Of a stretch of 64,000 nt of DNA, positions 1 through 64,000 are shown in pieces. The position numbers and the translations under genes are program-made. The stretch is from Sminthopsis crassicaudata (lineage: Eukaryota). Within the stretch, counting starts at the first letter, position 1, and each line of letters starts with the position of its first letter. The notes beneath the pieces are model-generated. The model was given only the letters and a program-made list of their open reading frames with translations, searched no databases and was not told the DNA's origin. The stretch lies in assembly GCF_048593235.1 (NCBI RefSeq), contig NC_133619.1:330536454-330600453 (forward strand), read 5' to 3'.

Positions 1-863
1 TGTTACAACAGCATTGGGAGCTAATAGATAACAACTCTGGAATATCTACTTGAGAAATGTTTGGTTCTCAGGGGATCCTTAGCCTGAAGGTTGCTAGATG
101 GTATTGGCAGACAGCAGAAGGCACTGCAGAGAAATAACACAGGTCATAAAGGGCGGAGATCTGGCTGTGAGTCCCACGCTGGCACTGACCAGCAGTGTGG
201 CTTTTTGTAAGTCACTTATCCTTTTTTACTTGAGATGGTCCCTCATTTGTAAAGTGCAGCTTCTAATATTTGTACCACTCACTTTCCCAAATTTTTATGA
301 GGGCCATTTTTCAAAAGGGTAAAGTATTACATAAATCTGAGGATCTACATTTTTTTTTTATTAAAATCTCTTTTTTTTTTTAAATATCATCCCAGTTTCT
401 CAGTTTTCCTCTCATCCTTTCAGAGAATCATGTGATTCAACAAATAGTAATTTTCAAAGGGAAAAAAAAAAACAACAGAAAAATACTCTAAAAATCTCAA
501 TGCATGTGTAATATGCAATATCTATTGACCTCCCACTTCTTCAAAGGGATGGAGTAGTCGTATCTTCTTGTTTTTTTCTATTACATAACCATTTTAGACC
601 TTTCTAATTTTGTGACATCCATTTTCAATATGTTTATATGGGCTCTTCTTTTCATCTGTATTGTTGAGGTCTTTATGTTGTAGCCATTGCTTTGGGGAGG
701 GGAGGGGCAAAATAGGTGGAGATATAGTGCACAAAGGCAGGCCTGGAATCAAGAAGACTGAAATTGAAATTTGGCCTTAGACACTTCTACCTGAGTGAGA
801 CTGGGATTAATCCTTTTGTCTTTGTAAAATAACTAGAGAAGAAAATGTCAAACTAGCCCACTA

Positions 864-896
<33 letters not shown>

Positions 897-1226
897 AAAT
901 CTCAAATAGGGTCTTGAGGAGTCAAATACAACTGAAATCACTGAATCATCATTTCATGCATTTCTTCCAATGTTTCTTTCCATTCATCAAGCTCATCTTT
1001 CCTTCCTTCCGTTTTTCTTTCTTATCTTTCTTTNNNNNNNNNNNNNNNNNNNNNNNNNNNNNNNNNNNNNNNNNNNNNNNNNNNNNNNNNNNNNNNNNNN
1101 NNNNNNNNNNNNNNNNNNNNNNNNNNNNNNNNNNNNNNNNNNNNNNNNNNNNNNNNNNNNNNNNNNNNNNNNNNNNNNNNNNNNNNNNNNNNNNNNNNNN
1201 NNNNNNNNNNNNNNNNNNNNNNNNNN

Positions 1227-4739: not shown

Positions 4740-4777
4740 TATAAAAGAGCCCACTAGATGGACTCCTGTCATTTTCC
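4740..4777 (+). promoter_or_regulatory. Core promoter of TRIM copy 1: TATA box plus initiator
   Basis: TATAAAAG at 4740-4747 and TCATTTT (YYANWYY) with the A at 4771, placing the TATA at -31. The TATA is retained in the other copies on the minus strand at 22080-22087, 36695-36702, 43831-43838, 51617-51624 and 59373-59380. Confidence 0.7.
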
Positions 4778-4916
4778 TGGTTGCCAGAGCTCAGGGAAAG
4801 AACTAGTTGCACATCCTGGGTTGACTCTCTCTGAAAACAGAAGAGCTCAGGGAAAGAACTGGTTCCCTAGCCTTAGTGGATTATCTCTGGAAAAAAGGCC
4901 TAGAAAACCTAGGAAC

Positions 4917-6548
4917 ATGGAAGCCAAAATCTGCTTTGAAAGCCTCAGAGTGGGGGCCTCCTGTCCCCTGTGCTTGGGCCATTGCATGGACCCAGTGACT
5001 CTCGAGTGTGGCCACACCTTCTGCACAGAGTGTCTTGCCAGCTCCTGGAAGGACATCTGCCCTCCAACAGCCTGCCCGGTGTGCAGCACAGCCACTGCCT
5101 TGGAAGACACGGTCCCCGACAGGGGGCTGCAGGATCTGGCTAACCCTGGCAAGCTGCAGAGAGCTCCCCTACTGCAGAGCCTCGGGGACCTGCCCACCTG
5201 TGACAAACACGGCCTACAGCACACCTTGTTCTGTGAGGAGGATCAGAGACCCTTGTGCGGACCCTGCTTTTTAAGCCCAGAGCACCAGAAGCACAGAGTT
5301 CTGCTCCTGGATGCGGCCGTCACTCAGTGCATGGAGAAGCTCGAGGCCACAGGCAAGAGTTTAAGGACCCAGAAGAAGAGATTTCAGATGGAATTGGGAT
5401 TTGAGGAAATCCGAGAGGCGCAGTGGGAGAAGGACGGCCGCCTGCTCAAAGCCTTGCTCGTGTCTGAATATGAGAAAATGCACCAGTTCTTGGGGGAGGA
5501 AGAAGAGATTCAACTGCAGACATTGGACCAGGAAGCAAGAGGCAATTTGGAGAACAAGAAAAGCCCCTTCCGAAAGAACCTTGGACTGCTAATGAAGCCA
5601 AAGAAGCAGCCCCTGCAGGGGCTCAAGGCTCAGAAGCAGGCTGTGAAGTCTGAATGGGAGCAAAAGCTCCACTTCTTGTCAGAGGAAAAGAAGCGACACC
5701 TGCAGAGGCTGGACCAAGAAGTCACAGACAACCTGGCCAAGTTTGAGGAGAGCAAGACCAGAATGAACCAAGAGATCCACAAGCTGGACATGCTGATAGC
5801 AGACATAGAGAAGAATTCTGTTCAGCCTCCTCTTGAAATGCTCCAGGAGGCAAAAGGCACATTGGGAAGGAGTGAGGAGCTACTTCTTCAGAAGCCAGTG
5901 GTGGCTTCCCCGACATGGACCATGCGCCCCGTCTCCGGAATGGCAGAAACGCTGCTGACTTTCCACAGGCGTCTGTGTCTGGACCCTCAAACAGCCAATC
6001 CCCATCTGGCCCTGTCTGAAGACCTGCAGAGGGTGGAATACCGTGCTGTCCCACAGGATGTCCCCGACAACCCAGAGAGATTCGATTCTGCCCTCTGGGT
6101 CTTGGCCAAGCAGAAGTTCACTTCAGGGAGACACTACTGGGAAGTGGTGGTGGGGGAGCAGAGGGAGTGGGAGGTGGGCGTCTGTGAGGAACGGATCAGA
6201 AGGAAGGGGGATGATGGCCAGAAGGTTCTGGGAGACAGGCTGACCCTGGCGGCCTTCACCTTTGGCAGGGACTTTCACTTGTGGCATTCAAAGCAAACCG
6301 TTCCTTCCTGCAAACCAGTTCAGAAGGTGGGCGTTTTCCTTGATTATGAAAGAGGGCACGTAGCTTTTTACAATGCTGCAGATGGAACCCTAATCTACAG
6401 TCCCCCAAATAAGGCTTTTCAAGGTCCCCTTCTCCCTTGTTTCTCTCCTTGCTTTCCAAAGGGGAAAAACACCTCTGGATGTCTGCATATCTGTCCCAGG
6501 AGGGACAATGCTCAAGAAGATGATCGTTCCCAAAATGAGATTTTCTAA
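4917..6548 (+). CDS. Intronless tripartite-motif protein (RING-B-box2-coiled coil-PRY/SPRY), TRIM60/61/75-like, copy 1, 543 aa
   Basis: C3HC4 RING (CPLC..CGHTFCTEC..CPVC, C16-C56), B-box2 (CDKH..FCEED..CGPC..H..H from C95), coiled coil, and B30.2 motifs LDPQTANPHLALSED, GRHYWEV and VGVFLDYE. ATG 4917 has a strong Kozak context (gaacATGG). The ORF track starts at ATG 4758, which lies upstream of the predicted TSS. Confidence 0.92.
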   Translation: MEAKICFESLRVGASCPLCLGHCMDPVTLECGHTFCTECLASSWKDICPPTACPVCSTATALEDTVPDRGLQDLANPGKLQRAPLLQSLGDLPTCDKHGLQHTLFCEEDQRPLCGPCFLSPEHQKHRVLLLDAAVTQCMEKLEATGKSLRTQKKRFQMELGFEEIREAQWEKDGRLLKALLVSEYEKMHQFLGEEEEIQLQTLDQEARGNLENKKSPFRKNLGLLMKPKKQPLQGLKAQKQAVKSEWEQKLHFLSEEKKRHLQRLDQEVTDNLAKFEESKTRMNQEIHKLDMLIADIEKNSVQPPLEMLQEAKGTLGRSEELLLQKPVVASPTWTMRPVSGMAETLLTFHRRLCLDPQTANPHLALSEDLQRVEYRAVPQDVPDNPERFDSALWVLAKQKFTSGRHYWEVVVGEQREWEVGVCEERIRRKGDDGQKVLGDRLTLAAFTFGRDFHLWHSKQTVPSCKPVQKVGVFLDYERGHVAFYNAADGTLIYSPPNKAFQGPLLPCFSPCFPKGKNTSGCLHICPRRDNAQEDDRSQNEIF

Positions 6549-6610
6549 TCCAAGCAACCAAAACAACCTCTGCAATGACTCCATTCATGAGAACCCTTGT
6601 TGAATATGTC

Positions 6611-6616
6611 AATAAA
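6611..6616 (+). terminator. Poly(A) signal of copy 1
   Basis: AATAAA 63 nt after the stop, with a second at 6728-6733. Equivalents on the minus strand at 20211-20216, 34824-34829, 41962-41967, 49746-49751 and 57502-57507. Confidence 0.55.
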
Positions 6617-6919: not shown

Positions 6920-9900
6920 GCAGTTAGTTACAACAGCATTGGGAGCTAATAGATAACAACTCTGGAATATCTACTTGAGAAATGTTTGCTTCTCAGGGGA
7001 TCCTTAGCCTAAAGGTTGCTAGATGGTATTGGCAGACAGCACAAGGCACTGCAGAGAAATAACACAGGTCATAAAGGGCGGAGATCTGGCTGTGAGTCCA
7101 AGTCTGGCACTGACCAGCAGTGTGGGTTTTGGTAAGTCACTTATCCTTTTGGACTTGAGATGGTCCCTCATTTGTAAAGTGCAGCTTCTAATAATTGTGC
7201 CACTTACTTTCCCAAATATTTATGAGGGCCATTTTTCAAAAGGGTAAAGTATTACATAAATGTGAGGATCTACATTTTATTTTTTATTAAAATCTTTTGT
7301 TTTCTTTACATCTTCACAGTTTCTCACAGTTTTCCTCTCTTCCTTTCAGAGAATCATGTGATTCAACAAATAGTAATTTTCAAAGGGAAAGAAAAACAGA
7401 AAAATACTCTTAAAAAATCTTAATGCATGTGTAATATGCAATATCAATTGACCTCCCTCTTCTTCAAAGGGATGGAGTAGGGGTACCTTCTTGTTTTTCT
7501 CTATTATGTAATCATTTTAGAGCACTTTGTGACATTCATTTTTGAAGTCTTTGTATGGGCCCTTCTTTTCATTTGTATTGTTGAAGTCATTATGTTGTAG
7601 CCACTGTTTTGGGGAGGGGAGGGGCAAAATAGGTGGAGAGAAATGCACAAAGGCAGGCCTGGAATCAAGAAGACCGCAACTGAAATTTGACCTTAGATAC
7701 TTATTGCCTGAATGAGTCTGGGCTAAATCCTTTCTCCTTTGTAAAATGACCTGGAGAAGAAAATGACAAACCACCACATTATCTTTTTTCTTTTTAAAGA
7801 AAATCTCACATAGGATCACTGAGAGTCAAATACATTGAAATCACTGAACAGCAACTGCAAAAACATCACTCTGCATCATTTCATGCATATCTTCCCATGT
7901 TTCTCTGTATNNNNNNNNNNNNNNNNNNNNNNNNNNNNNNNNNNNNNNNNNNNNNNNNNNNNNNNNNNNNNNNNNNNNNNNNNNNNNNNNNNNNNNNNNN
8001 NNNNNNNNNNNNNNNNNNNNNNNNNNNNNNNNNNNNNNNNNNNNNNNNNNNNNNNNNNNNNNNNNNNNNNNNNNNNNNNNNNNNNNNNNNNNNNNNNNNN
8101 NNNNNNNNNNNNNNNNNNNNNNNNNNNNNNNNNNNNNNNNNNNNNNNNNNNNNNNNNNNNNNNNNNNNNNNNNNNNNNNNNNNNNNNNNNNNNNNNNNNN
8201 NNNNNNNNNNNNNNNNNNNNNNNNNNNNNNNNNNTACCCAGGGTCACACACCTAGCAAATATTGGAGGCCATATTTGAACTCAGGTCTTCTTACTGCTGC
8301 ACCAGTGTTGTGAATGTCACCTAGTCATTACTTCTTGAAACATTTTCCTTAAAGTATTGTTATATCATTATACAATACTTCATAACTTGTTTAGACATTC
8401 GACAGTCTATGGGCTTCCTTTTTATTTCTAATTCTTTGTTTTCAGAAAAAGTACCACTATAAATATTTTGTTCTTTATGGGGACTTTATTTTTAATTTTT
8501 CTTCACTTATACACCTTGTAATGGAACCTCTGGTTCAAAGGATATTGAAATTTTAGTCACTTCACTTGGAAAATTCCAAATTGCTTTCCCAAACGGTTGT
8601 AACATTTCACAGTTCCACCAACAATAAAATTAATATGTCTATCATCCCATAACTTCTCCACCAGTAGATATTGACATTTGTTGTTCCTCTTAGCCAAATT
8701 TTACTTGTGAGATGAAACATGAAGGTTCTCTTCCTTTTCTCTTTTGACTAGTAATTTGATTAGGAATACTCTGCAATGATTCCTTGGAGACTTTTAAAGC
8801 CATATCCTTTGACCACTTATCTATTGAGGAATCATGATTAGTCCTTTGTAAAAATTCAATTTCAACTTCATTTCCAAAAGCACAATTCCCCCTCTCTTCC
8901 ATATTCAATGAGACAACAAAAAAAAACCCAAACCCCATGCGACATCAAGCAACACAAAAAGAAAAACACAAAAAGCAACACAAGAGCCATAAGAGAGTCT
9001 AGAGAAGTAAGCAAGAGACAAAAGATGAAATTAGAAATAAGATTAGGATTTAGTACAAAAAAATTAAAGGAAGAATCATTTAAAATAAAAACTGAAAAAG
9101 TTGTGAATTTCCTGAAAAAAACAAACAAACAGAATTCTACAAACAAAATGCAGATATTGAGACAAGAGATCTAAGAATTAGTTAATCAAAGGATTGAAAA
9201 ATAAAAGAAAATATAATGTATCCGCCATAAAAATCAGCTGACTTGAAAAACAGGTTGAGGAGACATCATTGAAGCATCACTGGTTTCCTTGAATACCTCA
9301 ATCAAACTAAAACCTTGGACACTGTTTCCAAAAGGTCCTAACTCTCCTCAAACTTGCTAGAATCCCAGAAAAAATATAGTTTCAGAGGTGCCATATTTAA
9401 CAACAACAAAATATAAATAAATGGAAGAAATATTCATGGGCAAAGAAAATGATTGCTTTTTGGCAGATGGCATGATGGTATACTGAGAAAAGCCTGGGAA
9501 AGTCTTAGCCAGGCATGACATAAACCAACAAGAACCATCACCTGTTCTGGGGTTAACCTCAGCAGAAAGAGATAGGGAAAGAAATGTGATTCAAAACAAC
9601 TATAAAATGGGTAAAATATTTGTGTCACAGATTTGTGTCACAGAGGAACCAGATGAATAAAACCACAAAATACATTTAAAAAGATAGAATTCTCCACATG
9701 AGTACAGCAGTCACTCATGACTTGATCCTCCCATTGACTGATCTGAAGCTTTAACATGTAACTTAGCTAAACAAGTTTGATTCTCTTTGAGCAGCCTGGG
9801 GCTCTCTCCTCTCTGGGGTTCAATAGCAGTTTCACACTTAGTAAAGACAAGACATCCACTGAGGTAAACTGTGCTAAACTGGAATGGGGGAGGGGGAGGT

Positions 9901-11313
9901 TGCAAGGCATAAGATCCCATCAATGCCTAGGCAATGCAGGACCACACAGGTCACAGGGAAAGGGCAATGACCAGTCAGCCCAGGGCCCAGGCAGTGTGCA
10001 ATATCTATTGACCTCCCACTTCTTGAAAGGGATGGAGTACGGGTTTCTTCTTGTTTTTCTCTATTATGTAATCATTTTAGAGCTTTCTAATTTTGTGACA
10101 TCCATTTTCAATATGTTTATATGTGCTCTTCTTTTCATTTGTATTGTTGAGGTCATTATGTTGTAGCCACTGTTTTGAGGAGGCGAAGGGCAAAATAGGT
10201 GGAGAGAAATGCACAGAGCCAGGCCTGGAATCAAGAAGACCGAAACTGAAATTTGGCCTTAGATACTTATTGCCTGAATGAGTCTGGGCTAAATCCTTTC
10301 TCCATTATAAAATGAACTGGAGAAGAAAATGACAAACTGCCACAATATCTTTTTTCTTTTTAAAGAAAATCTCACATAGGATCACTGAGAGTCAAATACA
10401 TTGAAATCACTGAACAACAACTGCAACATCACTCTGCATCATTTCTTACTTCTTACTCTTGAACGAGCATTTTATTGACTGTCATCTAGCTGCTTTATAA
10501 TAATTGCTTTTTATAACATTTTTTAAGTATAATTATATCCCTCTACATTAATACCCCATGATTTGTTTAGACATTCCAAAATTTATGAGCTTCCATTTTG
10601 TTTCTAATTCTCTGTTATCAGGAAATCGGCCACTTGTTTTTTTCTTTATTTTGTTCTTTATGGGGACTTTATTTTTATTTTTTCTTCACTTATAAGCCCT
10701 ATAATACAGGTCACAAAGTTGGTGATCTCAGAGTGAATCCAAGTCTGACACTGACTAGCTGTGTTATGCTAAGTCACTTCTCCTTTGGGACCTGAGATGG
10801 TCCCTCATCTGTAAAATCGAGCTCCTAATACTTATACCACTTATTTTGCCAAATGTTTATGAGGGATATTTTTCAAAATGTAAAGTATTTCATAAATGTG
10901 AGGATTTACATTTTTTTTAGAAAAATCTTTTATTTTTTTATATTACCACAGTTTCTCACAGTTTCCCTCTCATCCTTTCAGAGAATCATGTGATTCAACA
11001 AATAGTATTTTTCAAGGAAAAAAAGCCAGAAAAATACTCTGAAAAAAAAATCTAAATGTATGAACAGTGTGCAATGTCTACAGACCTCTCACTTCTTCAA
11101 AGGAGTAATAGTAGTTTTTCTTTATTTTAGAGTCATTTTAAAGCTTTCTAGTTTTGTGACATTTATTTTTGAGTTTATGTGTGTTCTTCTTTTCGTTTAC
11201 ATTGTTGAGGTCATAGTGTTGTAGCCACTCTTTTGGGCGGGACCAACTAGGTGGAGAGATAGTGCACAAAGCCAGGCCTGGAATCAAGAAGACCAAAATT
11301 GAAATCTGGCCTT
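6920..11313 (+). repeat. Rearranged repeat unit lacking the TRIM gene
   Basis: 8330-9994 matches 2700-4394. At 9994/9995 the sequence jumps directly into 3'-flank sequence (homolog of ~7435), skipping promoter and CDS. Confidence 0.8.
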
Positions 11314-12600
11314 GGGTGGGAATCCTCAGTGCAGAGCAGGCACAGTGGGAGGATAGGCAGGGTTCACCTTGGCACAGGTCAGGCTTGGAGGGCATTAGTC
11401 TCAGTGAGGGGTTCCATTCCAGATGAGAAAAAGAAACAGCAAAGCAGATTATTATAAGGGATTCCCCCTAAGTGAGTTAGAGAGTGCAATTCTGAAACAA
11501 AGGATAGCACAACGCTTGTGGAAGAACCACACTTCCTTCTGAAGGGTACCCCCAGGCCTGGCTATCAGCCACGCCAGAGGAGGGTTGGTTGCCCACAGGT
11601 TTTGTTGAACTCCCCCTTATCTAGTTATCTGTTTGTACATTTACAATTTATAACCTTAGAGTAACCAGCCCTAAGTTATATCTGTCCTAATGAACAGGAA
11701 GAGGTGTGCAAACAGGGGAACTGAGGCAGGATAATTCAGGGAAACTGAGGCAGGACCATTAAAGGGAACTATGGCACAATATTCCACACTCTCTCTTCTG
11801 AATATTCAAATCATTGTATTACGTTCCTCTAGATACCTAGAAGGTCTCAGAACCATAATGTTGACTATTTGAGGCAGATAAAGCAAAATAGAAGTAGAAA
11901 AATGCAAGGACTTACATGGCAAGGGCAAGTCTCTCCCTGACAACCCCAAAGTTAACAGCAGGACAAAGGCTCCCTGCTGCAGTATGACAGGTGGAGTACC
12001 ATCTCAGCCAGAGAATCCAGTATGAGATGGACAGTTCACTCTTAGGTGGTCTGCAGTCATTTGTGCACTTAACTCAGCCTCTGCTTATATAGGAAGTAGC
12101 AGGGCTCAAGACAGTTGTGCTGCCCATTCAGAGGGGCACCCCACTCTAGGGGAGAAGGGTAAGGCTTGGAGTAGCTCCACCTGTCCAGGATACAGATTTC
12201 TGAGCAGAGATATGAGAGTAGGCACAGTTAGACCATCAAGGCAGACACACTCCAAACTTTTAGAGGCCTTATCTCAAAACTGCAATGTCCTATGAGAATG
12301 CTGAAATACTAATTAAGTAACTGGGGTTGCAGGACTGGAGACTGCCAAGTCCCAAGGTGCCTGATTTCCGGTTGTTTCTAAAAAAAGTAGTCTGAGTCTG
12401 CCAGGGCAATTCCAACAGAATAAGGGGTTCCAGAGCTAAAGCATAACCACAGTCACATTCCAGTAGGTTTAAGCAAGAAGTAAAAACAGAAAAGGACTGC
12501 TTAATTCAATCTGAACTAGTGGGAAGGGGGTGGGGCAGAAGTGCCTAAGGCAAAGTGAAGAAGAAAGTAGGAGTTTCCATTCTTTCAGGTATTTTTGAGA
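11314..12600 (-). mobile_element. LTR (11314-11778) with adjacent 3' internal ERV remnant, antisense
   Basis: On the minus strand a purine-rich tract (gaagagagagtgtggaatat) precedes TGTGCC at 11778, and AATAAA lies near 11447. It abruptly truncates the tandem unit. Boundaries are approximate. Confidence 0.45.
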
Positions 12601-16320: not shown

Positions 16321-16439
16321 GAAATTGGTGAGGGGTCCCACGAGGACCCCAAACACACACTAAATAGATTAGGAACCTATCCAGAAGGGAGCTACAGGGT
16401 CCAAAGGGAATTATCAGGCCTTGATGAGAAATATGTACA

Positions 16440-22374: not shown

Positions 22375-22490
22375 TGTCAAAGTTGCCCAGAGTTATAGAG
22401 CTAGAAAGCATTTAGTGACTGATTCCTGGTTTGACTTGAAATACTCCAGGGCTGGCCTATATCCACTGTGCTATCTATCTGTCACTCACT
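22375..22490. mobile_element. Old MIR/MAR-like SINE fragment
   Basis: ttgcccagagttatagagctag...ctatatccactgtgctatc is a core-SINE-like motif. Confidence 0.45.
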
Positions 22491-48200: not shown

Positions 48201-49830
48201 GAAGACCTGAGTTAAAATATGGCCTCAAGTATTTGTTAGGTGTGTGACCCTGTGCAACAGGAAAGAAGGAAAGAAAGGAGAAAGGAAGGAAAGAAAGCAA
48301 GCAAGCAAGAAAGCAAGAATGAAAGAAATAAGGAAGGAGGGAAGGAAAGAATGAAAAAAAGAAGAATGAAAGAAGGAGGGTAGGAAAGAAAGAAAAGAAG
48401 GAAGGAAAAAAGGAAAGAATGAAAGAAAGAAAAAAAGATAAGAAAGAAAAAAGGAAGGAAAGATGAGCTTGATGAATGGAAAGAAACATTGGAAGATATG
48501 CATGAAATGATGATTCAGTGATTTCAGTTGTATTTGACTCCTCAAGACCCTATTTGAGATTTTCTTTTTAAAAAAAAAAGATAGACGGCTGGTTTGACAT
48601 TTTCTTCTCTAGTTACTTTACAAAGGTCAAAGGATTAAGCCCAGACTCACTCTGGTAGAAGTGTCTAAGGCCAAATTTCAGTTTCAGTCTTCTTGATTCC
48701 AGGCCTGGCTTTGTGCACTATATCTCCACCTATTTTGCCCCTCCCCTCCCCAAAAGAGTGGCTACAACATAAAGACCTCAACAATGCAAATGAAAAGAAG
48801 GGCCCATACAAAGCCATCAAAAATGGATGTCACAAAATTAGAAAGCTCTAAAATGATTACATAATAGAAAAAAACAAGAAGACACGCCTACTCCATCCCT
48901 TTGATGAACTGGGCGGTCAATAGATATTGCATATTACACATGCATTGAGATTTTTTTAGAGTATTTTTCTTTTTTTTTTTCCCCTTTGAAAATTACTATT
49001 TGTTGAATCACATGATTCTCTGAAAGGATGAGAGGGAAACTGTGAGAAACTGTGAGGATGTTAAAAAAAAAAAAAAGATTTTAATAAAAAAAATGTAGAT
49101 CCTCACATTTATGTAATACTTTACCCTTTTGAAAAATGGCCCTCATAAATATTTGGGAAAGTGAGTGGTTCAATTATTAGAAGCTGCACTTTACAAATGA
49201 GGGACCATCTCAAGTCCAAAAGGATAAGTGACTTACAAAAAGCCACACTGCTGGTCAGTGCCAGCCTGGGACTCACAGCCAGATCTCCGCCCTTTATGAC
49301 CTGTGTTATTTCTCTGCAGTGCCTTGTGCTGTCTGCCAATACCATCTAGCAACCTTTAGGCTAAGGATCCCCTGAGAACCAAACATTTCTCAAGTAGATA
49401 TTGCAGAGTTGTTATCTATTAGCTCCCAATGCTGTTGTAACAAACTGCCTCTAATTTGGCCATGAACGTATTTGGAAGGAAATTAATAAGTTCAAGTGAC
49501 AGAAAAAAATGTAAAGTGACTGACAGCTTGGATGTATAATCAAAGTAAAGGTAAGGATATTTTCTATAAAAAGAAGAAAATTTTAATTAAAACACCTTAA
49601 TGCAAAAAGTAATATTTAGAGGATGAACTTTTTATTTGAAAGATTTTTTTTTTTGGCTTTTGACAATAAATAACAACTTAATATTAACTAATTAATATTA
49701 ACATATTAATAATTAATAAACTTTATAATATAAGTTTAATATAACTTTATTGACAAATTCAACAAGGGTTCTCATGAATGGAAAGTCATTGCAGAGGTTG
49801 TTTTGGTTGCTTGGATTAGAAAATCTCATT

Positions 49831-51447: not shown

Positions 51448-54400
51448 GTTCCTAGGTTTTCTAGTCCTTTTTTCCAGAGATAATCCACTAAGGCTAGGGA
51501 ACTAGTTCTTTCCCTGAGCTCTTCTGTTTTCAGAGAGAGTCAACCCAGTATGTGCAACTAGATCTTCCCCTGAGCTCTGGCAGCCAGGAAAATGACAGGA
51601 GTCCATCTATTGGGCTCTTTTATAGGCCTTCCCTCTTAGCCCCTCCCCTCATCTATCATCAAGGTGTCAACCTCTGGCCTGATAAAGACCCCAGTTTCTC
51701 CCTAGTGAGAGTTCTCACCTGGGTGAGTTTTCACTTCTGGATTTCATTGTATTCCTGGGGCTGGGGACTCACCAGGGTGCTCACCCCTAGGCCATGCAGC
51801 CCAGAACTGTTTTCTCCAGTTTGGCACTTTAACCAAAGGAAAACCCCAGGCCATTGCTGACTGTGTCCAAAGGATTTCAGACACCATCAAACACTGTCAG
51901 TGGTGCTGGTGTCAAGCTTCCTGCCAGGCCCCAGGGATGCCCGGCTTTCCTGCTTTGGCTCCAGTGTTCCCTGCCTGGTCCCTGGGCTGACTGGTCATTG
52001 CCCTTTCCCTGTGACCTGTGTGGTCCTGCATTGCCTAGGCATTGATGGGATCCTGTGCCTTGCAACCTGTCCCCTCCCCCGTTCCAGTTTGTCCCTGCTC
52101 AGATTTTCAGTAGGATTGTGACATTGCTAGTCTAGCAAAGGTGTTTATAGTTACTCCTCTTTAGCTTTCTTTAACCTTGTTCCTTCTCTTATATTTTTAG
52201 AGTTTTTATGACATGTTTCTGGAAGGTTTTTAGACAATCCTTTGGGTCCTATTATTTCATCGGCTTAGTTGGAAGTCTGGAGCATAGGCTTTTAATCAGG
52301 GACCTTTCAGCATATCTGGTCTCCTGCACATTATACATATACCACAGTACTTCCGCTTCTCCAGCCCCTCGCTTCTCCCTGAAACTCCCACCCGAAACCC
52401 GAGTTCTGATCAGTGATCTTTCACTGCGTCTACCCTACAATCCCACCAATCATGCTACATTCCCTGGTTAGCTTCACACCGCACTGCTCTGCATGTGCCC
52501 TTTCTCATCACTCCTTCCTAACTCTATCTCTGAAAACAGTAATTAAAGCTCTACTAACAAAATATCCCTTTTTTGCTAACTTACATCTTATATCTTCCCA
52601 GTTAGAATATAAGACCCTTGAGGACAGGACTTACTATCTCCTGGGCTGCTCTGCTTAGCCTATAGTCAACACTAAATAAATGCATTTTCATTATATTATT
52701 GTTCCCTTTTTCATCCTTGAAGTTTTGTTTCTCCAGATAAAATTGGTTTTTATTTTTCCTAGTCCTCTGAAGTAACACCGTGGTCTATTTGGCACAGCAC
52801 TGAAAATGTAAGTTGATTTGGACAGTATCATTTTTATTCTACTAGCATAGTCCAAATATGAGCAGTTATTATATTTTCAATTATTTATGTCTGTTTTTAC
52901 TTCTGTGCAGAGGGTTTTGGCTGGGAGTAGTGCTCCCTACCTGTAACCCCTGATATTGGAAGAAGCTAAAGATGTTTTTGGTCTGCTTTAGTTGGGAGTT
53001 CTGAGATATAGCATAGTTCACCTCAGTGGATGCCTTTACAGAGTCTGAAACTGCTATTGAACCCCAGGGAGGAGAGAGCCCCAGGCTGCTGAACGAGGAT
53101 CAAACTTGTTTAGCTAAGACAGTGAAATGAGGTAAAGCCTCAGATCAATCAATAGGAAGATCAAGTCATGAGTGACTGCTATACTGCTCCTGCAGGACCA
53201 TAGAGAATTCTATCTTTTGTTTAAAAAGCATTTTGTCGTTTTATTCACATGATACCTCTGTGGCACAAATGTTGAACTCCCAGATACTTTATACATTTTA
53301 TAGTGGTTTTCAATCGCATTTCTTTCTCTATCTCTTCCTGTTGAGGTTTGTTAGTAACTCAGAACCTTGTTGGTTTAGTTTATGCCTTGCTAAGATTATC
53401 CCAGGCTTTTCTAAGTACACCATCATGCCATCTGCCAAAAAAAGCAAGTTTGAGGGGAGTTAGGATCTTTTGCAACAGTGTCCAAGTTTTTAGTTTGATT
53501 ATGGTATTCAAGGAAAGCAATGATTCTTCAACATTTTGGTAGCAGATACATTATATTTTCTTTTTGTTTTCAATGTTTTGATTAATATATTCTTATATTT
53601 CTTCTCTCACTGAATTTTGCTTGTAGAACTCTGGTTTTTTTTTTCAGGGAATCCACTACTTGAATAAAGTTTTTATTTTAAATGATACTTCCTTTAATTT
53701 TTTTTGTACTAAATCGAATCTTATTTCTAATTTCATCTTTTGTCTCTTGCTTACTTCTCTAGACACTCTTGTAACTCTTGGGATCAAGTTGTGTTGTTTT
53801 TTGCTTGATTTAAAATCTGTTTTGGTTTTTTTGCCTTCTCATTGAATATGGGAGAGAGGGGAAAAGTTAGTGCTTTTGGAACTGAAGATGATATTGAATT
53901 TTTACAAAGGACTGATCATGATTCCTCAATAGATAAGTGGTCAAAGGATATGACTTTAAAAGTTTCAATGGAATCATTGCAGAGTATTCCTAATCAAATT
54001 ACTAGTCATAAGAGAAAAGAAAGAAAACTTTATCTTTCTTCTCACAAGTAAAATTTGTCTATGAGGACTAAAAAATGGCAATAGTTATTGGAGGAGGGGT
54101 TGTGGGATGATACTAATTTTATTGTTGGTGGAACTGTGAAATCCTACAGCCATTTGGGAAAGCAATTTGGAATTATCCAAGTTAAGTGACTAAATTTTCA
54201 ATATCCTTTGAACCAGAGACTGCATTACAGGGCTTATAAGGGAAGAAAAAATAAAAGTAAAGTTCCCATATAGAATAAAATTATACATTGGTACTTTTTC
54301 TTATATTAAAGGATTGGAATTAAAATTGAAGTTTATAGATTGTGGAACAAACTATGGACTATTAATGTAGGGGGATATAACTATACTTTAAGAAAAACGT

Positions 54401-57400
54401 TTTAAGAAGTAATGATTATAAATTTCTTAGGTGACAGTCAATAGAACACTGGCCCAGGAATAAGAAAACCTGAGTTCAAAAATGGCCTCAAATATTTGCT
54501 TAGGTGCGTGAACCTGGGNNNNNNNNNNNNNNNNNNNNNNNNNNNNNNNNNNNNNNNNNNNNNNNNNNNNNNNNNNNNNNNNNNNNNNNNNNNNNNNNNN
54601 NNNNNNNNNNNNNNNNNNNNNNNNNNNNNNNNNNNNNNNNNNNNNNNNNNNNNNNNNNNNNNNNNNNNNNNNNNNNNNNNNNNNNNNNNNNNNNNNNNNN
54701 NNNNNNNNNNNNNNNNNNNNNNNNNNNNNNNNNNNNNNNNNNNNNNNNNNNNNNNNNNNNNNNNNNNNNNNNNNNNNNNNNNNNNNNNNNNNNNNNNNNN
54801 NNNNNNNNNNNNNNNNNNNNNNNNNNNNNNNNNNNNNNNNNNNNNNNNNNNNNNNNNNNNNNNNNNNNNNAGAAATATGGGAACATATGCATGAAATGAT
54901 GTAAAGTGAAGTTGTTGCAGGTGTTGTTCAGTGATTTCAGTTGTATTTGACTCCTCATGCCCCATTTGAGATTTTCTTAAAAGGAAGATACTGGGGTAGT
55001 TTGTCATTTCCTTCTCCAGTTCATTTTACAAAGGCAAATGGTTTCAGCCCAGACTCACTCAGGTAGTAAGTGTCTAATGCCAAATTTCAATTTAGGTCTT
55101 CTTGATTCCAGGCCTGGCTTTGTGCACTAACCCCCCACCCACCCCCCCGCCAAAAAAAAAAAAAAAAAGTGGTTACATCATGATCTCAAAAATGTAAATG
55201 AAAAGAAGAGCACACATAAACTCAAAAATAAATGTCACAAAATTAGAAAGCTTTAAAACGACTCCAAAATAAAGAAAAAACTACTATTACTCCATCCCTT
55301 TGAAGAAGTGGGAGGTCTATAGATATTGCATATTCTTCATACATTTAGATTTTTTTTTTCAGAATATTTTTCTGGCTTTTTTCTTTGAAAAATACTGTAT
55401 ATTGAATCGCATTTGATTCTCTGAAAGGATGAGAGGAAAACTATGAGAAATTGTTATCATATAAGAAACCAAAAGATTTTTATAAAAAATGGAAATCCTC
55501 ACATTTATGAAATACTTTACCATTCTGAAAAATATCCATCATAAACATTTGGCAAAGTAAGTGGTATAAGTATTAGGAGCTCGATTTTACAGATGAGGTC
55601 TCAGGTCCCAAAGGAGAAGTGACTTAGCATAAGCCACACAGCTAGTCAGTGCCAGACTTGGATTCACACTGAGATCAACTAACTTTGTGACCTGTATTAC
55701 AGGGCTTATAAATGAAGAAAAAATAAAAATAAAGTCCCCATAAAGAACAAAATAAAGAGCCAAAAAAAAAAAAGATTAAACAAGCGGCTGTTTTTCTGAT
55801 AACAGAGAATTATAAACAAAATGGAAGCCCATAGATTTTGGGCTAAACAAATCATGGAGTATTAATGTAGGGGGTATAATTATAGTGTAAGAAAAATATT
55901 TTAAGAAGTAATTATTATAAAGCAGCTAGGTGACAGTCAATAAAATGCTGGCTCAGGAAGACCTGAGTTAAAATATGGCCTCAAGTATTTGTTAGGTGTG
56001 TGACCCTGTGCAACAGGAAAGAAGGAAAGAAAGGAGAAAGGAAGGAAAGAAAGCAAGCAAGCAAGAAAGCAAGAATGAAAGAAATAAGGAAGGAGGGAAG
56101 GAAAGAATGAAAAAAAGAAGAATGAAAGAAGGAGGGTAGGAAAGAAAGAAAAGAAGGAAGGAAAAAAGGAAAGAATGAAAGAAAGAAAAAAAGATAAGAA
56201 AGAAAAAAGGAAGGAAAGATGAGCTTGATGAATGGAAAGAAACATTGGAAGATATGCATGAAATGATGATTCAGTGATTTCAGTTGTATTTGACTCCTCA
56301 AGACCCTATTTGAGATTTTCTTTTTAAAAAAAAAAGATAGACGGCTGGTTTGACATTTTCTTCTCTAGTTACTTTACAAAGGTCAAAGGATTAAGCCCAG
56401 ACTCACTCTGGTAGAAGTGTCTAAGGCCAAATTTCAGTTTCAGTCTTCTTGATTCCAGGCCTGGCTTTGTGCACTATATCTCCACCTATTTTGCCCCTCC
56501 CCTCCCCAAAAGAGTGGCTACAACATAAAGACCTCAACAATGCAAATGAAAAGAAGGGCCCATACAAAGCCATCAAAAATGGATGTCACAAAATTAGAAA
56601 GCTCTAAAATGATTACATAATAGAAAAAAACAAGAAGACACGCCTACTCCATCCCTTTGATGAACTGGGCGGTCAATAGATATTGCATATTACACATGCA
56701 TTGAGATTTTTTTAGAGTATTTTTCTTTTTTTTTTTCCCCTTTGAAAATTACTATTTGTTGAATCACATGATTCTCTGAAAGGATGAGAGGGAAACTGTG
56801 AGAAACTGTGAGGATGTTAAAAAAAAAAAAAAGATTTTAATAAAAAAAATGTAGATCCTCACATTTATGTAATACTTTACCCTTTTGAAAAATGGCCCTC
56901 ATAAATATTTGGGAAAGTGAGTGGTTCAATTATTAGAAGCTGCACTTTACAAATGAGGGACCATCTCAAGTCCAAAAGGATAAGTGACTTACAAAAAGCC
57001 ACACTGCTGGTCAGTGCCAGCCTGGGACTCACAGCCAGATCTCCGCCCTTTATGACCTGTGTTATTTCTCTGCAGTGCCTTGTGCTGTCTGCCAATACCA
57101 TCTAGCAACCTTTAGGCTAAGGATCCCCTGAGAACCAAACATTTCTCAAGTAGATATTGCAGAGTTGTTATCTATTAGCTCCCAATGCTGTTGTAACAAA
57201 CTGCCTCTAATTTGGCCATGAACGTATTTGGAAGGAAATTAATAAGTTCAAGTGACAGAAAAAAATGTAAAGTGACTGACAGCTTGGATGTATAATCAAA
57301 GTAAAGGTAAGGATATTTTCTATAAAAAGAAGAAAATTTTAATTAAAACACCTTAATGCAAAAAGTAATATTTAGAGGATGAACTTTTTATTTGAAAGAT

Positions 57401-57586: not shown

Positions 57587-59203
57587 TTAGGAACGATCAT
57601 CTTCTTGAGCATTGTCCCTCCTGGGACAGATAAGCAGATATCCAGAGGTGTTTTTCCCCCTTGGAAAGCAAGGAGAGAAACAAGGGAGAAGGGGACCTTG
57701 AAAAGCCTTATTTGGGGGACTGTAGATTAGAGTTCCATCTGCAGCATTGTAAAAAGCTACGTGCCCTCTTTCATAATCTAGGAAAACGCCCACCTTCTGA
57801 ACTGGTTTGCAGGAAGGAACAGTTTGCTTTGAATGCCACAAGTGAAAGTCCCTGCCAAAGGTGAAGGCCGCCAGGGTCAGCCTGTCTCCCAGAACCTTCT
57901 GGCCACCATCCCCCTTCCTTCTGATCCGTTCCTCACAGACGCCCACCTCCCACTCCCTCTGCTCCCCCACCACCACTTCCCAGTAGTGTCTCCCTGAAGT
58001 GAACTTTTGCTTGGCCAAGACCCAGAGGGCAGAATCGAATCTCTCTGGGTTGTCGGGGACATCCTGTGGGACAGCACGGTATTCCACCCTCTGCAGGTCT
58101 TCAGACAGGGCCAGATGGGGATTGGCTGTTTGAGGGTCCAGACACAGACGCCTGTGGAAAGTCAGCAGCGTTTCTGCCATTCCGGAGACGGGGCGCATGG
58201 TCCATGTCGGGGAAGCCACCACTGGCTTCTGAAGAAGTAGCTCCTCACTCCTTCCCAATGTGCCTTTTGCCTCCTGGAGCATTTCAAGAGGAAGCTGAAC
58301 AGAATTCTTCTCTATGTCTGCTATCAGCATGTCCAGCTTGTGGATCTCTTGCTTCATTCTGGTCTTGCTCTCCTCAAACTTGGCCAGGTTGTCTGTGACT
58401 TCTTGGTCCAGCCTCTGCAGGTGTTGCTTCTTTTCCTCTGACAAGAAGTGGAGCTTTTGCTCCCACTCAGACTTCACAGCCTGCTTCTGAGCCTCGAGCC
58501 CCTGCAGGGGCTGCTTCTTTGGCTTCATTAGCAGTCCAAGGTTCTTTCGGAAGGGGCTTTTCTTGTTCTCCAAATTGCCTCTTGCTTCCCGGTCTAATGT
58601 CTGCAGTTGTATCTCTTCTTCCTCCCCCAAGAACTGGTGCATTTTCTCATATTCAGACAAGAGCAAGGCTTTGAGCAGGCGGCCGTCCTTCTCCCACTGC
58701 GCCTCCCGGATTTCCTCAAATCCCAATTCCATCTGAAATCTCTTCTTCTGGGTCCTTAAACTCTTGCCTGTGGCCTCGAGCTTCTCCATGCACTGAGTGA
58801 CGGCCGCATCCAGGAGCAGAACTCTGTGCTTCTGGTGCTCTGGGCTTAAAAAGCAGGGTCCGCACAAGGGTCTCTGATCCTCCTCACAGAACAAGGTGTG
58901 CTGTAGGCCGTGTTTGTCACAGGTGGGCAGGTCCCCGAGGCTCTGCAGTAGGGGAGCTCTCTGCATCTTGCCAGTGTTAGCCAGATCCTGCAGCCCCCTG
59001 TCGGGGACCGTGTCTTCCAAGGCAGTGGCTGTGCTGCACACCGGGCAGGCTGTTGGAGGGCAGATGTCCTTCCAGGAGCTGGCAAGACACTCTGTGCAGA
59101 AGGTGTGGCCACACTCGAAAGTCACTGGGTCCATGCAATGGCCCAAGCACAGGGGACAGGAGGCCCCCACTCTGAGGCTTTCAAAGCAGATTTTGGCATC
59201 CAT
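57587..59203 (-). CDS. Intronless TRIM, copy 6, 538 aa
   Basis: Open ORF with the same early stop as copy 5. Confidence 0.9.
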   Translation of the reverse strand: MDAKICFESLRVGASCPLCLGHCMDPVTFECGHTFCTECLASSWKDICPPTACPVCSTATALEDTVPDRGLQDLANTGKMQRAPLLQSLGDLPTCDKHGLQHTLFCEEDQRPLCGPCFLSPEHQKHRVLLLDAAVTQCMEKLEATGKSLRTQKKRFQMELGFEEIREAQWEKDGRLLKALLLSEYEKMHQFLGEEEEIQLQTLDREARGNLENKKSPFRKNLGLLMKPKKQPLQGLEAQKQAVKSEWEQKLHFLSEEKKQHLQRLDQEVTDNLAKFEESKTRMKQEIHKLDMLIADIEKNSVQLPLEMLQEAKGTLGRSEELLLQKPVVASPTWTMRPVSGMAETLLTFHRRLCLDPQTANPHLALSEDLQRVEYRAVPQDVPDNPERFDSALWVLAKQKFTSGRHYWEVVVGEQREWEVGVCEERIRRKGDGGQKVLGDRLTLAAFTFGRDFHLWHSKQTVPSCKPVQKVGVFLDYERGHVAFYNAADGTLIYSPPNKAFQGPLLPCFSPCFPRGKNTSGYLLICPRRDNAQEDDRS

Positions 59204-62200
59204 GTTCCTAGGTTTTCTAGTCCTTTTTTCCAGAGATAATCCACTAAGGCTAGGGAACTAGTTCTTTCCCTGAGCTCTTCTGTTTTCAGAGAGAGTCAAC
59301 CCAGTATGTGCAACTAGATCTTCCCCTGAGCTCTGGCAGCCAGGAAAATGACAGGAGTCCATCTATTGGGCTCTTTTATAGGCCTTCCCTCTTAGCCCCT
59401 CCCCTCATCTATCATCAAGGTGTCAACCTCTGGCCTGATAAAGACCCCAGTTTCTCCCTAGTGAGAGTTCTCACCTGGGTGAGTTTTCACTTCTGGATTT
59501 CATTGTATTCCTGGGGCTGGGGACTCACCAGGGTGCTCACCCCTAGGCCATGCAGCCCAGAACTGTTTTCTCCAGTTTGGCACTTTAACCAAAGGAAAAC
59601 CCCAGGCCATTGCTGACTGTGTCCAAAGGATTTCAGACACCATCAAACACTGTCAGTGGTGCTGGTGTCAAGCTTCCTGCCAGGCCCCAGGGATGCCCGG
59701 CTTTCCTGCTTTGGCTCCAGTGTTCCCTGCCTGGTCCCTGGGCTGACTGGTCATTGCCCTTTCCCTGTGACCTGTGTGGTCCTGCATTGCCTAGGCATTG
59801 ATGGGATCCTGTGCCTTGCAACCTGTCCCCTCCCCCGTTCCAGTTTGTCCCTGCTCAGATTTTCAGTAGGATTGTGACATTGCTAGTCTAGCAAAGGTGT
59901 TTATAGTTACTCCTCTTTAGCTTTCTTTAACCTTGTTCCTTCTCTTATATTTTTAGAGTTTTTATGACATGTTTCTGGAAGGTTTTTAGACAATCCTTTG
60001 GGTCCTATTATTTCATCGGCTTAGTTGGAAGTCTGGAGCATGGCTTTTAATCAGGGACCTTTCAGCATATCTGGTCTCCTGCACATTATACATATACCAC
60101 AGTACTTCCGCTTCTCCAGCCCCTCGCTTCTCCCTGAAACTCCCACCCGAAACCCGAGTTCTGATCAGTGATCTTTCACTGCGTCTACCCTACAATCCCA
60201 CCAATCATGCTACATTCCCTGGTTAGCTTCACACCGCACTGCTCTGCATGTGCCCTTTCTCATCACTCCTTCCTAACTCTATCTCTGAAAACAGTAATTA
60301 AAGCTCTACTAACAAAATATCCCTTTTTTGCTAACTTACATCTTATATCTTCCCAGTTAGAATATAAGACCCTTGAGGACAGGACTTACTATCTCCTGGG
60401 CTGCTCTGCTTAGCCTATAGTCAACACTAAATAAATGCATTTTCATTATATTATTGTTCCCTTTTTCATCCTTGAAGTTTTGTTTCTCCAGATAAAATTG
60501 GTTTTTATTTTTCCTAGTCCTCTGAAGTAACACCGTGGTCTATTTGGCACAGCACTGAAAATGTAAGTTGATTTGGACAGTATCATTTTTATTCTACTAG
60601 CATAGTCCAAATATGAGCAGTTATTATATTTTCAATTATTTATGTCTGTTTTTACTTCTGTGCAGAGGGTTTTGGCTGGGAGTAGTGCTCCCTACCTGTA
60701 ACCCCTGATATTGGAAGAAGCTAAAGATGTTTTTGGTCTGCTTTAGTTGGGAGTTCTGAGATATAGCATAGTTCACCTCAGTGGATGCCTTTACAGAGTC
60801 TGAAACTGCTATTGAACCCCAGGGAGGAGAGAGCCCCAGGCTGCTGAACGAGGATCAAACTTGTTTAGCTAAGACAGTGAAATGAGGTAAAGCCTCAGAT
60901 CAATCAATAGGAAGATCAAGTCATGAGTGACTGCTATACTGCTCCTGCAGGACCATAGAGAATTCTATCTTTTGTTTAAAAAGCATTTTGTCGTTTTATT
61001 CACATGATACCTCTGTGGCACAAATGTTGAACTCCCAGATACTTTATACATTTTATAGTGGTTTTCAATCGCATTTCTTTCTCTATCTCTTCCTGTTGAG
61101 GTTTGTTAGTAACTCAGAACCTTGTTGGTTTAGTTTATGCCTTGCTAAGATTATCCCAGGCTTTTCTAAGTACACCATCATGCCATCTGCCAAAAAAAGC
61201 AAGTTTGAGGGGAGTTAGGATCTTTTGCAACAGTGTCCAAGTTTTTAGTTTGATTATGGTATTCAAGGAAAGCAATGATTCTTCAACATTTTGGTAGCAG
61301 ATACATTATATTTTCTTTTTGTTTTCAATGTTTTGATTAATATATTCTTATATTTCTTCTCTCACTGAATTTTGCTTGTAGAACTCTGGTTTTTTTTTTC
61401 AGGGAATCCACTACTTGAATAAAGTTTTTATTTTAAATGATACTTCCTTTAATTTTTTTTGTACTAAATCGAATCTTATTTCTAATTTCATCTTTTGTCT
61501 CTTGCTTACTTCTCTAGACACTCTTGTAACTCTTGGGATCAAGTTGTGTTGTTTTTTGCTTGATTTAAAATCTGTTTTGGTTTTTTTGCCTTCTCATTGA
61601 ATATGGGAGAGAGGGGAAAAGTTAGTGCTTTTGGAACTGAAGATGATATTGAATTTTTACAAAGGACTGATCATGATTCCTCAATAGATAAGTGGTCAAA
61701 GGATATGACTTTAAAAGTTTCAATGGAATCATTGCAGAGTATTCCTAATCAAATTACTAGTCATAAGAGAAAAGAAAGAAAACTTTATCTTTCTTCTCAC
61801 AAGTAAAATTTGTCTATGAGGACTAAAAAATGGCAATAGTTATTGGAGGAGGGGTTGTGGGATGATACTAATTTTATTGTTGGTGGAACTGTGAAATCCT
61901 ACAGCCATTTGGGAAAGCAATTTGGAATTATCCAAGTTAAGTGACTAAATTTTCAATATCCTTTGAACCAGAGACTGCATTACAGGGCTTATAAGGGAAG
62001 AAAAAATAAAAGTAAAGTTCCCATATAGAATAAAATTATACATTGGTACTTTTTCTTATATTAAAGGATTGGAATTAAAATTGAAGTTTATAGATTGTGG
62101 AACAAACTATGGACTATTAATGTAGGGGGATATAACTATACTTTAAGAAAAACGTTTTAAGAAGTAATGATTATAAATTTCTTAGGTGACAGTCAATAGA

Positions 62201-64000
62201 ACACTGGCCCAGGAATAAGAAAACCTGAGTTCAAAAATGGCCTCAAATATTTGCTTAGGTGCGTGAACCTGGGNNNNNNNNNNNNNNNNNNNNNNNNNNN
62301 NNNNNNNNNNNNNNNNNNNNNNNNNNNNNNNNNNNNNNNNNNNNNNNNNNNNNNNNNNNNNNNNNNNNNNNNNNNNNNNNNNNNNNNNNNNNNNNNNNNN
62401 NNNNNNNNNNNNNNNNNNNNNNNNNNNNNNNNNNNNNNNNNNNNNNNNNNNNNNNNNNNNNNNNNNNNNNNNNNNNNNNNNNNNNNNNNNNNNNNNNNNN
62501 NNNNNNNNNNNNNNNNNNNNNNNNNNNNNNNNNNNNNNNNNNNNNNNNNNNNNNNNNNNNNNNNNNNNNNNNNNNNNNNNNNNNNNNNNNNNNNNNNNNN
62601 NNNNNNNNNNNNNNNNNNNNNNNNNNNNNNNNNNNNNNNNNNNNNAGAAATATGGGAACATATGCATGAAATGATGTAAAGTGAAGTTGTTGCAGGTGTT
62701 GTTCAGTGATTTCAGTTGTATTTGACTCCTCATGCCCCATTTGAGATTTTCTTAAAAGGAAGATACTGGGGTAGTTTGTCATTTCCTTCTCCAGTTCATT
62801 TTACAAAGGCAAATGGTTTCAGCCCAGACTCACTCAGGTAGTAAGTGTCTAATGCCAAATTTCAATTTAGGTCTTCTTGATTCCAGGCCTGGCTTTGTGC
62901 ACTAACCCCCCACCCACCCCCCCGCCAAAAAAAAAAAAAAAAAGTGGTTACATCATGATCTCAAAAATGTAAATGAAAAGAAGAGCACACATAAACTCAA
63001 AAATAAATGTCACAAAATTAGAAAGCTTTAAAACGACTCCAAAATAAAGAAAAAACTACTATTACTCCATCCCTTTGAAGAAGTGGGAGGTCTATAGATA
63101 TTGCATATTCTTCATACATTTAGATTTTTTTTTTCAGAATATTTTTCTGGCTTTTTTCTTTGAAAAATACTGTATATTGAATCGCATTTGATTCTCTGAA
63201 AGGATGAGAGGAAAACTATGAGAAATTGTTATCATATAAGAAACCAAAAGATTTTTATAAAAAATGGAAATCCTCACATTTATGAAATACTTTACCATTC
63301 TGAAAAATATCCATCATAAACATTTGGCAAAGTAAGTGGTATAAGTATTAGGAGCTCGATTTTACAGATGAGGTCTCAGGTCCCAAAGGAGAAGTGACTT
63401 AGCATAAGCCACACAGCTAGTCAGTGCCAGACTTGGATTCACACTGAGATCAACTAACTTTGTGACCTGTATTACAGGGCTTATAAATGAAGAAAAAATA
63501 AAAATAAAGTCCCCATAAAGAACAAAATAAAGAGCCAAAAAAAAAAAAGATTAAACAAGCGGCTGTTTTTCTGATAACAGAGAATTATAAACAAAATGGA
63601 AGCCCATAGATTTTGGGCTAAACAAATCATGGAGTATTAATGTAGGGGGTATAATTATAGTGTAAGAAAAATATTTTAAGAAGTAATTATTATAAAGCAG
63701 CTAGGTGACAGTCAATAAAATGCTGGCTCAGGAAGACCTGAGTTAAAATATGGCCTCAAGTATTTGTTAGGTGTGTGACCCTGTGCAACAGGAAAGAAGG
63801 AAAGAAAGGAGAAAGGAAGGAAAGAAAGCAAGCAAGCAAGAAAGCAAGAATGAAAGAAATAAGGAAGGAGGGAAGGAAAGAATGAAAAAAAGAAGAATGA
63901 AAGAAGGAGGGTAGGAAAGAAAGAAAAGAAGGAAGGAAAAAAGGAAAGAATGAAAGAAAGAAAAAAAGATAAGAAAGAAAAAAGGAAGGAAAGATGAGCT

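Follow-up and report, generated by a model that had tools for sequence, protein, structure and literature searches.

Eutherian TRIML1 and TRIML2 are expressed in embryo, trophoblast and gonad, two opossum models are expressed in gonad, and an inhibitory role has been proposed for TRIML2, which has no RING (PMC6993854). Triml1 is apparently among the genes dispensable for male mouse fertility (PMC12917576). Several marsupial TRIML1 annotations have been noted and held to be possible artefacts, and RING-less TRIML proteins have been treated as specific to eutherians (PMC6993854). TRIM clusters that expand lineage by lineage are already known (PMC3228819, PMC10445537), and since such clusters are common, an array alone is unsurprising. 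Here we describe a stretch of 64,000 nucleotides from Sminthopsis crassicaudata, the fat-tailed dunnart (NC_133619.1, positions 330,536,454 to 330,600,453; the window), which holds six near-identical, intronless genes of the TRIML1/2 family, copies A to F. Their predicted proteins have a duplicated coiled-coil module and a RING without the residues that drive catalysis in TRIM21, and we tentatively read them as catalytically weak adaptors or decoys, amplified for dose. No account of the array, of the coiled-coil duplication or of the RING changes was found in the literature searched, with subscription papers and some supplements outside the search; none is described in PMC12866920, PMC13408496, PMC11091235, PMC10445537 or PMC11334065, nor in the searched supplements, including 11 of the 15 files of PMC12221971.

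Translation of the window gave six open reading frames (ORFs), each free of interruption over 538-543 codons, with identities of 97.8-99.4% in nucleotides and 95.6-98.9% in amino acids over all 15 pairs (Table 1). Copies C to F follow one another head to tail, in units of 7.1-7.8 kb; copy A points against B-F, which makes the array partly inverted. Further units reach into the window at both of its ends, one unit has lost its gene and one copy is a relic. Hence, the layout given in the preliminary description of this DNA (six intact, highly similar, intronless TRIM ORFs, more copies past both ends, one gene-less unit and one relic) was recovered in full. All runs of N lie in spacers and none within ORFs, and no host gene other than the TRIML-like copies was found in the 64-kb window. 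The stops of E (49831-49833) and F (57587-57589) come five codons earlier than those of A-D, giving 538 instead of 543 residues.

Stacked haplotypes or assembly errors could form a false array; such artefacts were suspected for marsupial TRIML1 copies (PMC6993854), and the spacers of units E, F and the next one are 99.8-100% identical. However, the copies differ by 0.6-2.2% and carry inversions, unique insertions and a deletion. The 3039-bp deletion joint of the gene-less unit is also present in a contig of public run X1, whose independence from the assembly is uncertain, and the devil and Antechinus assemblies are multi-copy for the same clade as well. We therefore consider an artefact very improbable.

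TRIM60, TRIM61 and TRIM75 have a single coding exon and C-IV architecture, and the copies had been compared with them. We found another family. Pfam places RING (16-56), B-box (93-130), PRY (354-401) and SPRY (405-512) domains in copy A, and the class C-IV order of RING, B-box 2, coiled coil and PRY/SPRY is supported by Pfam, by an AlphaFold model (predicted local distance difference test score, pLDDT, 81.6) and by Foldseek. The top protein match is a Sminthopsis crassicaudata protein (98%). The best 120 of 973 matches above the cut-off comprise 68 marsupial or unnamed, 50 eutherian and 2 fish proteins; 49 of the 50 eutherian proteins bear the name TRIML1, and eutherian TRIML1 proteins are the best eutherian matches among those listed (E down to 3e-94). 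None of these best 120 of 973 is named TRIM60, TRIM61 or TRIM75, and none could be so named in the tree. In that tree (FastTree, 109 proteins with outgroups), the window copies form a 37-row clade (local support 99) with eutherian TRIML1 and TRIML2, separate from other TRIMs, and they are nested there within a marsupial expansion of 30 rows. Because of this nesting, they are at most co-orthologues of eutherian TRIML1 and not its 1:1 orthologues (four orthologue accessions of PMC6993854 lay outside the rows looked up for this comparison). TRIM64-like proteins lie near the TRIML clade, and the name TRIML1 is used loosely, since three proteins so named fall outside the TRIML1/TRIML2 clade. Hence, judged by homology, these fat-tailed dunnart copies belong to the TRIML1/2 family and to neither the TRIM60/61/75 nor the TRIM5/21 type; the earlier view of them as marsupial and intronless stands, and the comparison with TRIM60/61/75 falls.

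The coiled coil of the dunnart copies spans 193 residues (131-323). Among 51 aligned proteins, the span is exactly 131 residues in 27, including all seven eutherian ones, 191-200 in 15 Australidelphian rows, and 222 and 236 in two, one of them from opossum. The region is internally repeated: in pairwise alignments, 0 of 1000 shuffles matched the repeat score in five long forms, and two short controls stayed at chance level. The period is 62 residues in dunnart, 69 in wombat and 105 in opossum. Searching with the coiled-coil region gave 22 proteins, all marsupial or unnamed, and the AlphaFold model has two helices (131-213 and 231-301) with a low-confidence hinge between them. Hence, on these alignments, the long duplicated coiled coil is common to marsupial relatives only; two short rows within the long-coiled-coil clade make loss, gene-model error or separate duplications possible. 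Another dunnart TRIML-like model, P0146 on a 757-Mb chromosome, is 354 residues long; its coiled coil is long and doubled, and it lacks a PRY/SPRY.

TRIM21 residues E12, E13, D21 and R55 drive Ube2N catalysis, and R55A abolishes Ube2D1 catalysis (PMC6776665). We found none of the four in the dunnart: G21 and S57 align to TRIM21 D21 and R55, V12 and G13, which fall immediately beyond the alignment as printed, are assigned to E12 and E13 by ungapped register, and V-G-G-S occupies these positions in all 14 dunnart RINGs examined. The TRIM5-type combination of a tri-ionic anchor for Ube2N and a linchpin arginine is thus absent (0/4 positions in 14/14). The same positions read V-D-G-R in 4/4 devil and Antechinus array RINGs and E-E-D-W in 50/50 eutherian RINGs, and the linchpin is R or K in 56/58 other marsupial RINGs. 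All eight zinc ligands are kept in 6/6 window copies, as are L18, L20 and W44, and none of the 66 variants hits a zinc ligand. One dunnart copy outside the window (P0129) is without a zinc ligand. No RING domain is listed for 11 of the 68 marsupial proteins among the matches listed, and in one devil assembly 7/8 models begin beyond the RING; these seven have a 6-residue deletion in common and group as a clade. Taking devil models KAM9034430-37 and XP_031817146/7 together (P0004, P0005, P0136-P0143), 8/10 are without a RING, with a common 6-residue deletion before the B-box.

These residues bear on the idea that the protein is an active E3 ligase amplified for dose which, in germ cells or embryos, degrades a fixed host substrate together with an E2 able to act without the missing residues. 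The intact zinc ligands, L18, L20 and W44 would suit such an enzyme, as would the two full-length models among the 14 annotated and the linchpin R kept in two devil and two Antechinus models. However, the linchpin and all three anchors are gone from every dunnart RING, P0129 is short of a zinc ligand and most devil models have no RING, which makes an active ligase unlikely.

Between species, the PRY/SPRY is the best-conserved part of the protein: its identity to dunnart is 158/180 (88%) in devil and 152/180 (84%) in Antechinus, and the rest of the protein is 76% and 70% identical, respectively (PRY/SPRY excess, p 0.001 and 0.0004). The variable loops are largely kept (v1 17/19, v4 11/11, v3 16-17/20), v2 being the most variable at 13/16 and 10/16. 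Hence, this domain fits an arms race at the binding surface poorly, and the fast-evolving PRY/SPRY loops of TRIM5 were not seen (proteins of three species; dN/dS among the six copies only). The six copies differ by 43 replacement and 23 silent changes (pN/pS 0.53), and among them neither positive selection nor a replacement excess in the PRY/SPRY (14 replacement versus 9 silent) was seen. Indels number 0 in the 1632-bp ORF versus 9 in 716 bp of 3' flank.

Such conservation weighs on the proposal that the genes are antiviral or anti-retroelement restriction factors of the TRIM5 kind, whose longer coiled coil would alter lattice spacing on capsids. The domain order and fold are those of TRIM5 and TRIM21, gene conversion is focused on the coiled coil (see below), dasyurid genomes are rich in endogenous retroviruses (ERVs; PMC11334065) and young primate TRIM duplicates show positive selection (PMC3228819). 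But the loops are conserved, replacements are not in excess, residues for K63 signalling are missing, and the adjoining ERV and L1 pieces are broken and limited to two stretches. We find a restriction factor quite unlikely.

Copy number and history were then read across species. A single 657-Mb chromosome carries all 14 members of the dunnart protein cluster. Window copies A, B, D, E and F each have a match among them and C has none, which brings the dunnart to at least 15 loci. Models of the same clade number eight in one devil assembly (two in an older one) and two in Antechinus. Dunnart (14 rows), devil (10) and Antechinus (2) each form a clade of their own, with support of 100, 99 and 100 by the Shimodaira-Hasegawa-like approximate likelihood ratio test (SH-aLRT) and 100 for all three together; this tree came from a quick IQ-TREE search with no bootstrap and omitted the shark and sturgeon matches, 42 of the 50 eutherian matches, five dunnart models duplicating window copies and one fragment. 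Sister to the dasyurid array clade is a devil gene (P0006) on a 255-Mb chromosome. The multi-copy clusters in devil and Antechinus make the array dasyurid-wide and not dunnart-only. Hence, of the claim of a lineage-specific array, the absence of 1:1 orthologues agrees with it, but the same-clade clusters in two other genera do not.

Gains, losses and pseudogenes are evident as the gene-less unit, the relic and copy numbers of 15:8:2 in dunnart, devil and Antechinus, in line with the amplification by unequal crossover, with copy loss, that had been proposed. Paralogues older than the species and grouping across them, which birth and death would also leave, were not found; copies group by species. 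The four-gamete test fails for 127 of the 231 informative site pairs in the window. Between units E and F, 7402 aligned bases contain 12 substitutions; 10 of these fall in the ORF, which makes up 22% of the unit (p 1e-5), and a likely gene-conversion tract lies over the duplicated coiled coil (Table 1); no such crowding in the ORF was found between D and E (p 0.54). Hence, the earlier description as birth and death holds for gains and losses, but gene conversion is equally evident. On these sequences, the best reading of the locus is a dasyurid-wide array in which unequal crossover and gene conversion have kept the copies of each species alike while some were lost; each species might instead have expanded its copies recently and independently.

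As to origin, full-length TRIML1 homology in one ORF shows the absence of the parent's introns that is expected of a retrogene, the parent gene presumably having had introns. AATAAA is present, and the tract downstream is AT-rich, not A-rich, by eye. Retroposition is plausible as the first step of the family. P0006, the devil paralogue matched by the flank upstream of B, lies on a different chromosome; this match suggests that gene and flank moved together as DNA and that the recent spread was at the DNA level.

The array might also reflect mostly neutral turnover, in which a recombination-prone 7.7-kb unit drifts in number, one or two copies matter and the rest seem intact merely because they are kept young by conversion. 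Decay is visible in the gene-less unit, the relic, a 165-residue fragment and the RING-less devil models; the 15:8:2 ratio among species, old spacer sub-repeats (72-79% identical) that favour misalignment and an omega not clearly below 1 agree with drift. However, all six window ORFs are open without an indel, E and F differ mainly in the ORF and three genera are multi-copy, and we place this account on the unlikely side.

What we favour, though at somewhat less than an even chance, is an adaptor or decoy of weak catalytic activity that would bind a fixed host partner and be amplified for dose in the germ line or conceptus. By alignment and structural model, the protein retains a folded RING, a B-box, a lengthened and hinged coiled coil and a conserved PRY/SPRY. 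By sequence, these compact, intronless genes of the TRIML1/2 family, with putative TATA promoters, appear to be kept homogeneous within each species, as a tandem and inverted array, by unequal crossover and gene conversion. The PRY/SPRY would bind a single fixed host partner, and the RING, minus its catalytic contacts, would leave the protein a weak ligase, an adaptor or a decoy that might bind and shield the partner or damp other TRIMs. Copy number would set the dose within a brief window, in germ cells or the early conceptus, like placental TRIML1/2. The preliminary description had offered an antiviral or anti-retroelement role, or one in germ line or early embryo. The antiviral option is weakened by the PRY/SPRY being best conserved and by the RING missing the K63 residues of TRIM5/21, and a germ-line or early-embryo role fits best by analogy with eutherian TRIML1/2 and the gonad expression of two opossum models.

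Several points count against the weak adaptor or decoy. No other marsupial RING (0/58) carries all three acidic anchors, so part of the loss is old and family-wide. A RING without the linchpin arginine can work, eutherian TRIML1 having W there, and the TRIM21 R55A mutant still neutralised virus in cells (PMC6776665). The RING-less devil proteins, known as gene models only, may stem from pseudogenes or faulty annotation. A high identity in the PRY/SPRY is common for this fold, and the comparison covers three species. The six copies show weak purifying selection (omega 0.56-0.74; p 0.03, 0.12 and 0.27 by transition bias, with significance only when that bias is ignored), and the 5' flank is likewise without indels.

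A bolder form, which we think rather unlikely, is that carnivorous marsupials evolved a TRIML2-like decoy independently: a marsupial-only long coiled coil, an amplified array and loss of the ligase by two routes (linchpin and anchors in dunnart, the RING in devil) would serve to damp inflammation or TRIM signalling by dose where conceptus meets uterus, or in germ cells. If so, a catalytically disabled TRIML would no longer be a placental-only innovation.

RefSeq also annotates the window copies as 'probable TRIML1'. We found that 10 of its 14 dunnart models (XP_074158184-199) close the main exon at residue 470 (donor 50038 in copy E) and so truncate the SPRY; acceptors vary among these 10, two lying in the next unit's 5' flank, and the genomic ORF continues past residue 470 to a complete SPRY. 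Only two of the 14 are full length. Hence, our analysis flags SPRY truncation in 10/14 RefSeq models. Of 24 public runs, 20 contain part of the stretch, none recorded as RNA or with a library or tissue entry, and four were compared over 48480-54500, as contigs only. Contigs of X1 and X2 span all 30 bins of that interval. In X5 and X8, which come from two studies and are guessed to be RNA, the contigs cover the gene body (49810-51800 and 50225-51879) and leave the unique spacer bare; their ends do not coincide and their letters match no single window copy. This pattern is a weak hint of transcription at most and is given no weight here. The duplicated coiled-coil module is crossed without a gap in X5 and X8, and contigs of X1, X2 and X5 bridge donor 50038 without a joint, which is uninformative on splicing if the runs are DNA.

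Every copy has a TATA box before the ATG and an AATAAA after the stop, so each is a compact unit of ~1.9 kb. The TATA box stands at an equal 177-bp distance in 6/6 copies (in B-F at 22087, 36702, 43838, 51624 and 59380), and AATAAA lies 62-79 bp past the stop in 6/6. A 53-residue N-terminal extension was rejected as the true start: it begins 18 bp past the TATA box, and stops close its frame in all copies but A and D. The predicted 5' untranslated region (4786-4894) holds a 56-bp tandem repeat in two copies containing the word GGATTA, a candidate homeobox site. Three types of 5' flank occur, one common to A and C, another to D, E and F, and a third in B; farther out than ~640 bp upstream of the ATG, the first two types share only 76-80% identity (43662-46700 versus 37000-38800).

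The spacers of C-F align with one another. Within them (44300-49700 and equivalents), sub-repeats of 72-79% identity at offsets of 1.3-1.5 kb are much older than the 98% identity between units. GC content is 53% in ORFs (65% at third positions) versus 35% in spacers; GC-biased conversion is possible. The preliminary description had ERV and L1 insertions interleaved with all units. A Pfam scan of 35 of the 57 listed ORFs, with the spacers of C-F outside the scan, found retroelement families in 9/35 (ERV gag/pro/pol and L1 domains), but these are confined to ~11.3-19.2 kb and 22.3-33.3 kb. Repeats common to both stretches at 74-89% (18894-19252/23869-24265 and 13730-14748/24698-25280) are probably shared element ends.

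Table 1. Features of the 64-kb window (positions in the window; aa, amino acids)
Feature	Position	Strand	Remarks
TRIML-like ORF A	4917-6548	+	543 aa, intronless; matches RefSeq model P0127 up to residue 470
TRIML-like ORF B	20279-21910	-	543 aa
TRIML-like ORF C	34894-36525	-	543 aa; matches none of 14 annotated cluster members
TRIML-like ORF D	42030-43661	-	543 aa; equals RefSeq model P0131
TRIML-like ORF E	49831-51447	-	538 aa
TRIML-like ORF F	57587-59203	-	538 aa
3' flank of further unit past left end	1-1033	+	92-94% to 3' flanks of B-F
3' flank of further unit past right end	62646-64000	-	1355/1355 bases identical to F's flank
Gene-less unit	8236-11315	+	5' flank fused to 3' flank at 9994/9995; ~3.04 kb including ORF missing
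Relic copy	33284-33724	-	SPRY fragment fused to diverged 3' flank
Internally duplicated coiled-coil module, copy E	50598-50916	-	aa 178-221 repeated at 240-284
Likely gene-conversion tract	50669-50950		8/12 E-F substitutions within 282 bp, over duplicated coiled coil
TATA box of copy A	4740-4746	+	177 bp before ATG; putative function
AATAAA signal of copy A	6611-6616	+	62 bp past stop
Flank upstream of B	22478-22576	-	matches residues 1-34 of devil paralogue P0006, 68%, E 5e-7; at B only
Broken ERV fragment	15240-17715	+	gag p24, zinc knuckle; pro/pol through similarity to 31725-32710
Broken L1	25266-28490	+	ORF1 RNA-binding domain, endonuclease and reverse transcriptase pieces
Broken ERV fragment	31423-32768	+	protease, reverse transcriptase

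A genuine multi-copy array in three dasyurid genera, with signs of ligase loss, contrasts with the view of marsupial TRIML1 copies in PMC6993854. The duplicated coiled-coil module offers a natural test of how rod length sets TRIM geometry, and work on the dunnart, a marsupial kept in the laboratory, could address expression, activity and copy deletion.

Among known systems, eutherian TRIML1 shares with the dunnart copies a clade that includes TRIML2 (support 99), the RING-coiled coil-PRY/SPRY order and ~51% PRY/SPRY identity. Its coiled coil has 131 residues (7/7 aligned) versus 193 in the dunnart, and it keeps the E-E-D anchors (50/50) that the dunnart has lost. Unlike the dunnart copies, eutherian TRIML1 is presumably multi-exon. 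It is also single copy in each species and has lost the B-box (PMC6993854). Eutherian TRIML2, of the same clade, is a paralogue minus the ligase parts and a proposed inhibitor; it has neither RING nor B-box, and its PRY/SPRY is positively selected (PMC6993854), whereas the dunnart RING is present but altered (and missing in most devil models) and the PRY/SPRY is conserved. The marsupial 'probable TRIML1' models with long coiled coils (devil XP_031799396, wombat XP_027710291 and opossum XP_056677011) belong to the same clade and have the same duplicated module, but they mostly occur in one to few copies, are 50-60% identical and have K/R at the linchpin.

The primate TRIM43/48/49/51/64 cluster is alike in being young, variable in copy number and spread through DNA duplication (PMC3228819), but its genes are spliced, show positive selection in v1 and the coiled coil, and form a separate clade. 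TRIM5, TRIM21 and TRIM22 share the domain order and the PRY/SPRY fold (template modelling score 0.88-0.90 to the TRIM21 PRYSPRY by Foldseek). Unlike them, the dunnart copies have ~41% PRY/SPRY identity to that group, no loop diversification, and neither the anchor nor the linchpin residues.

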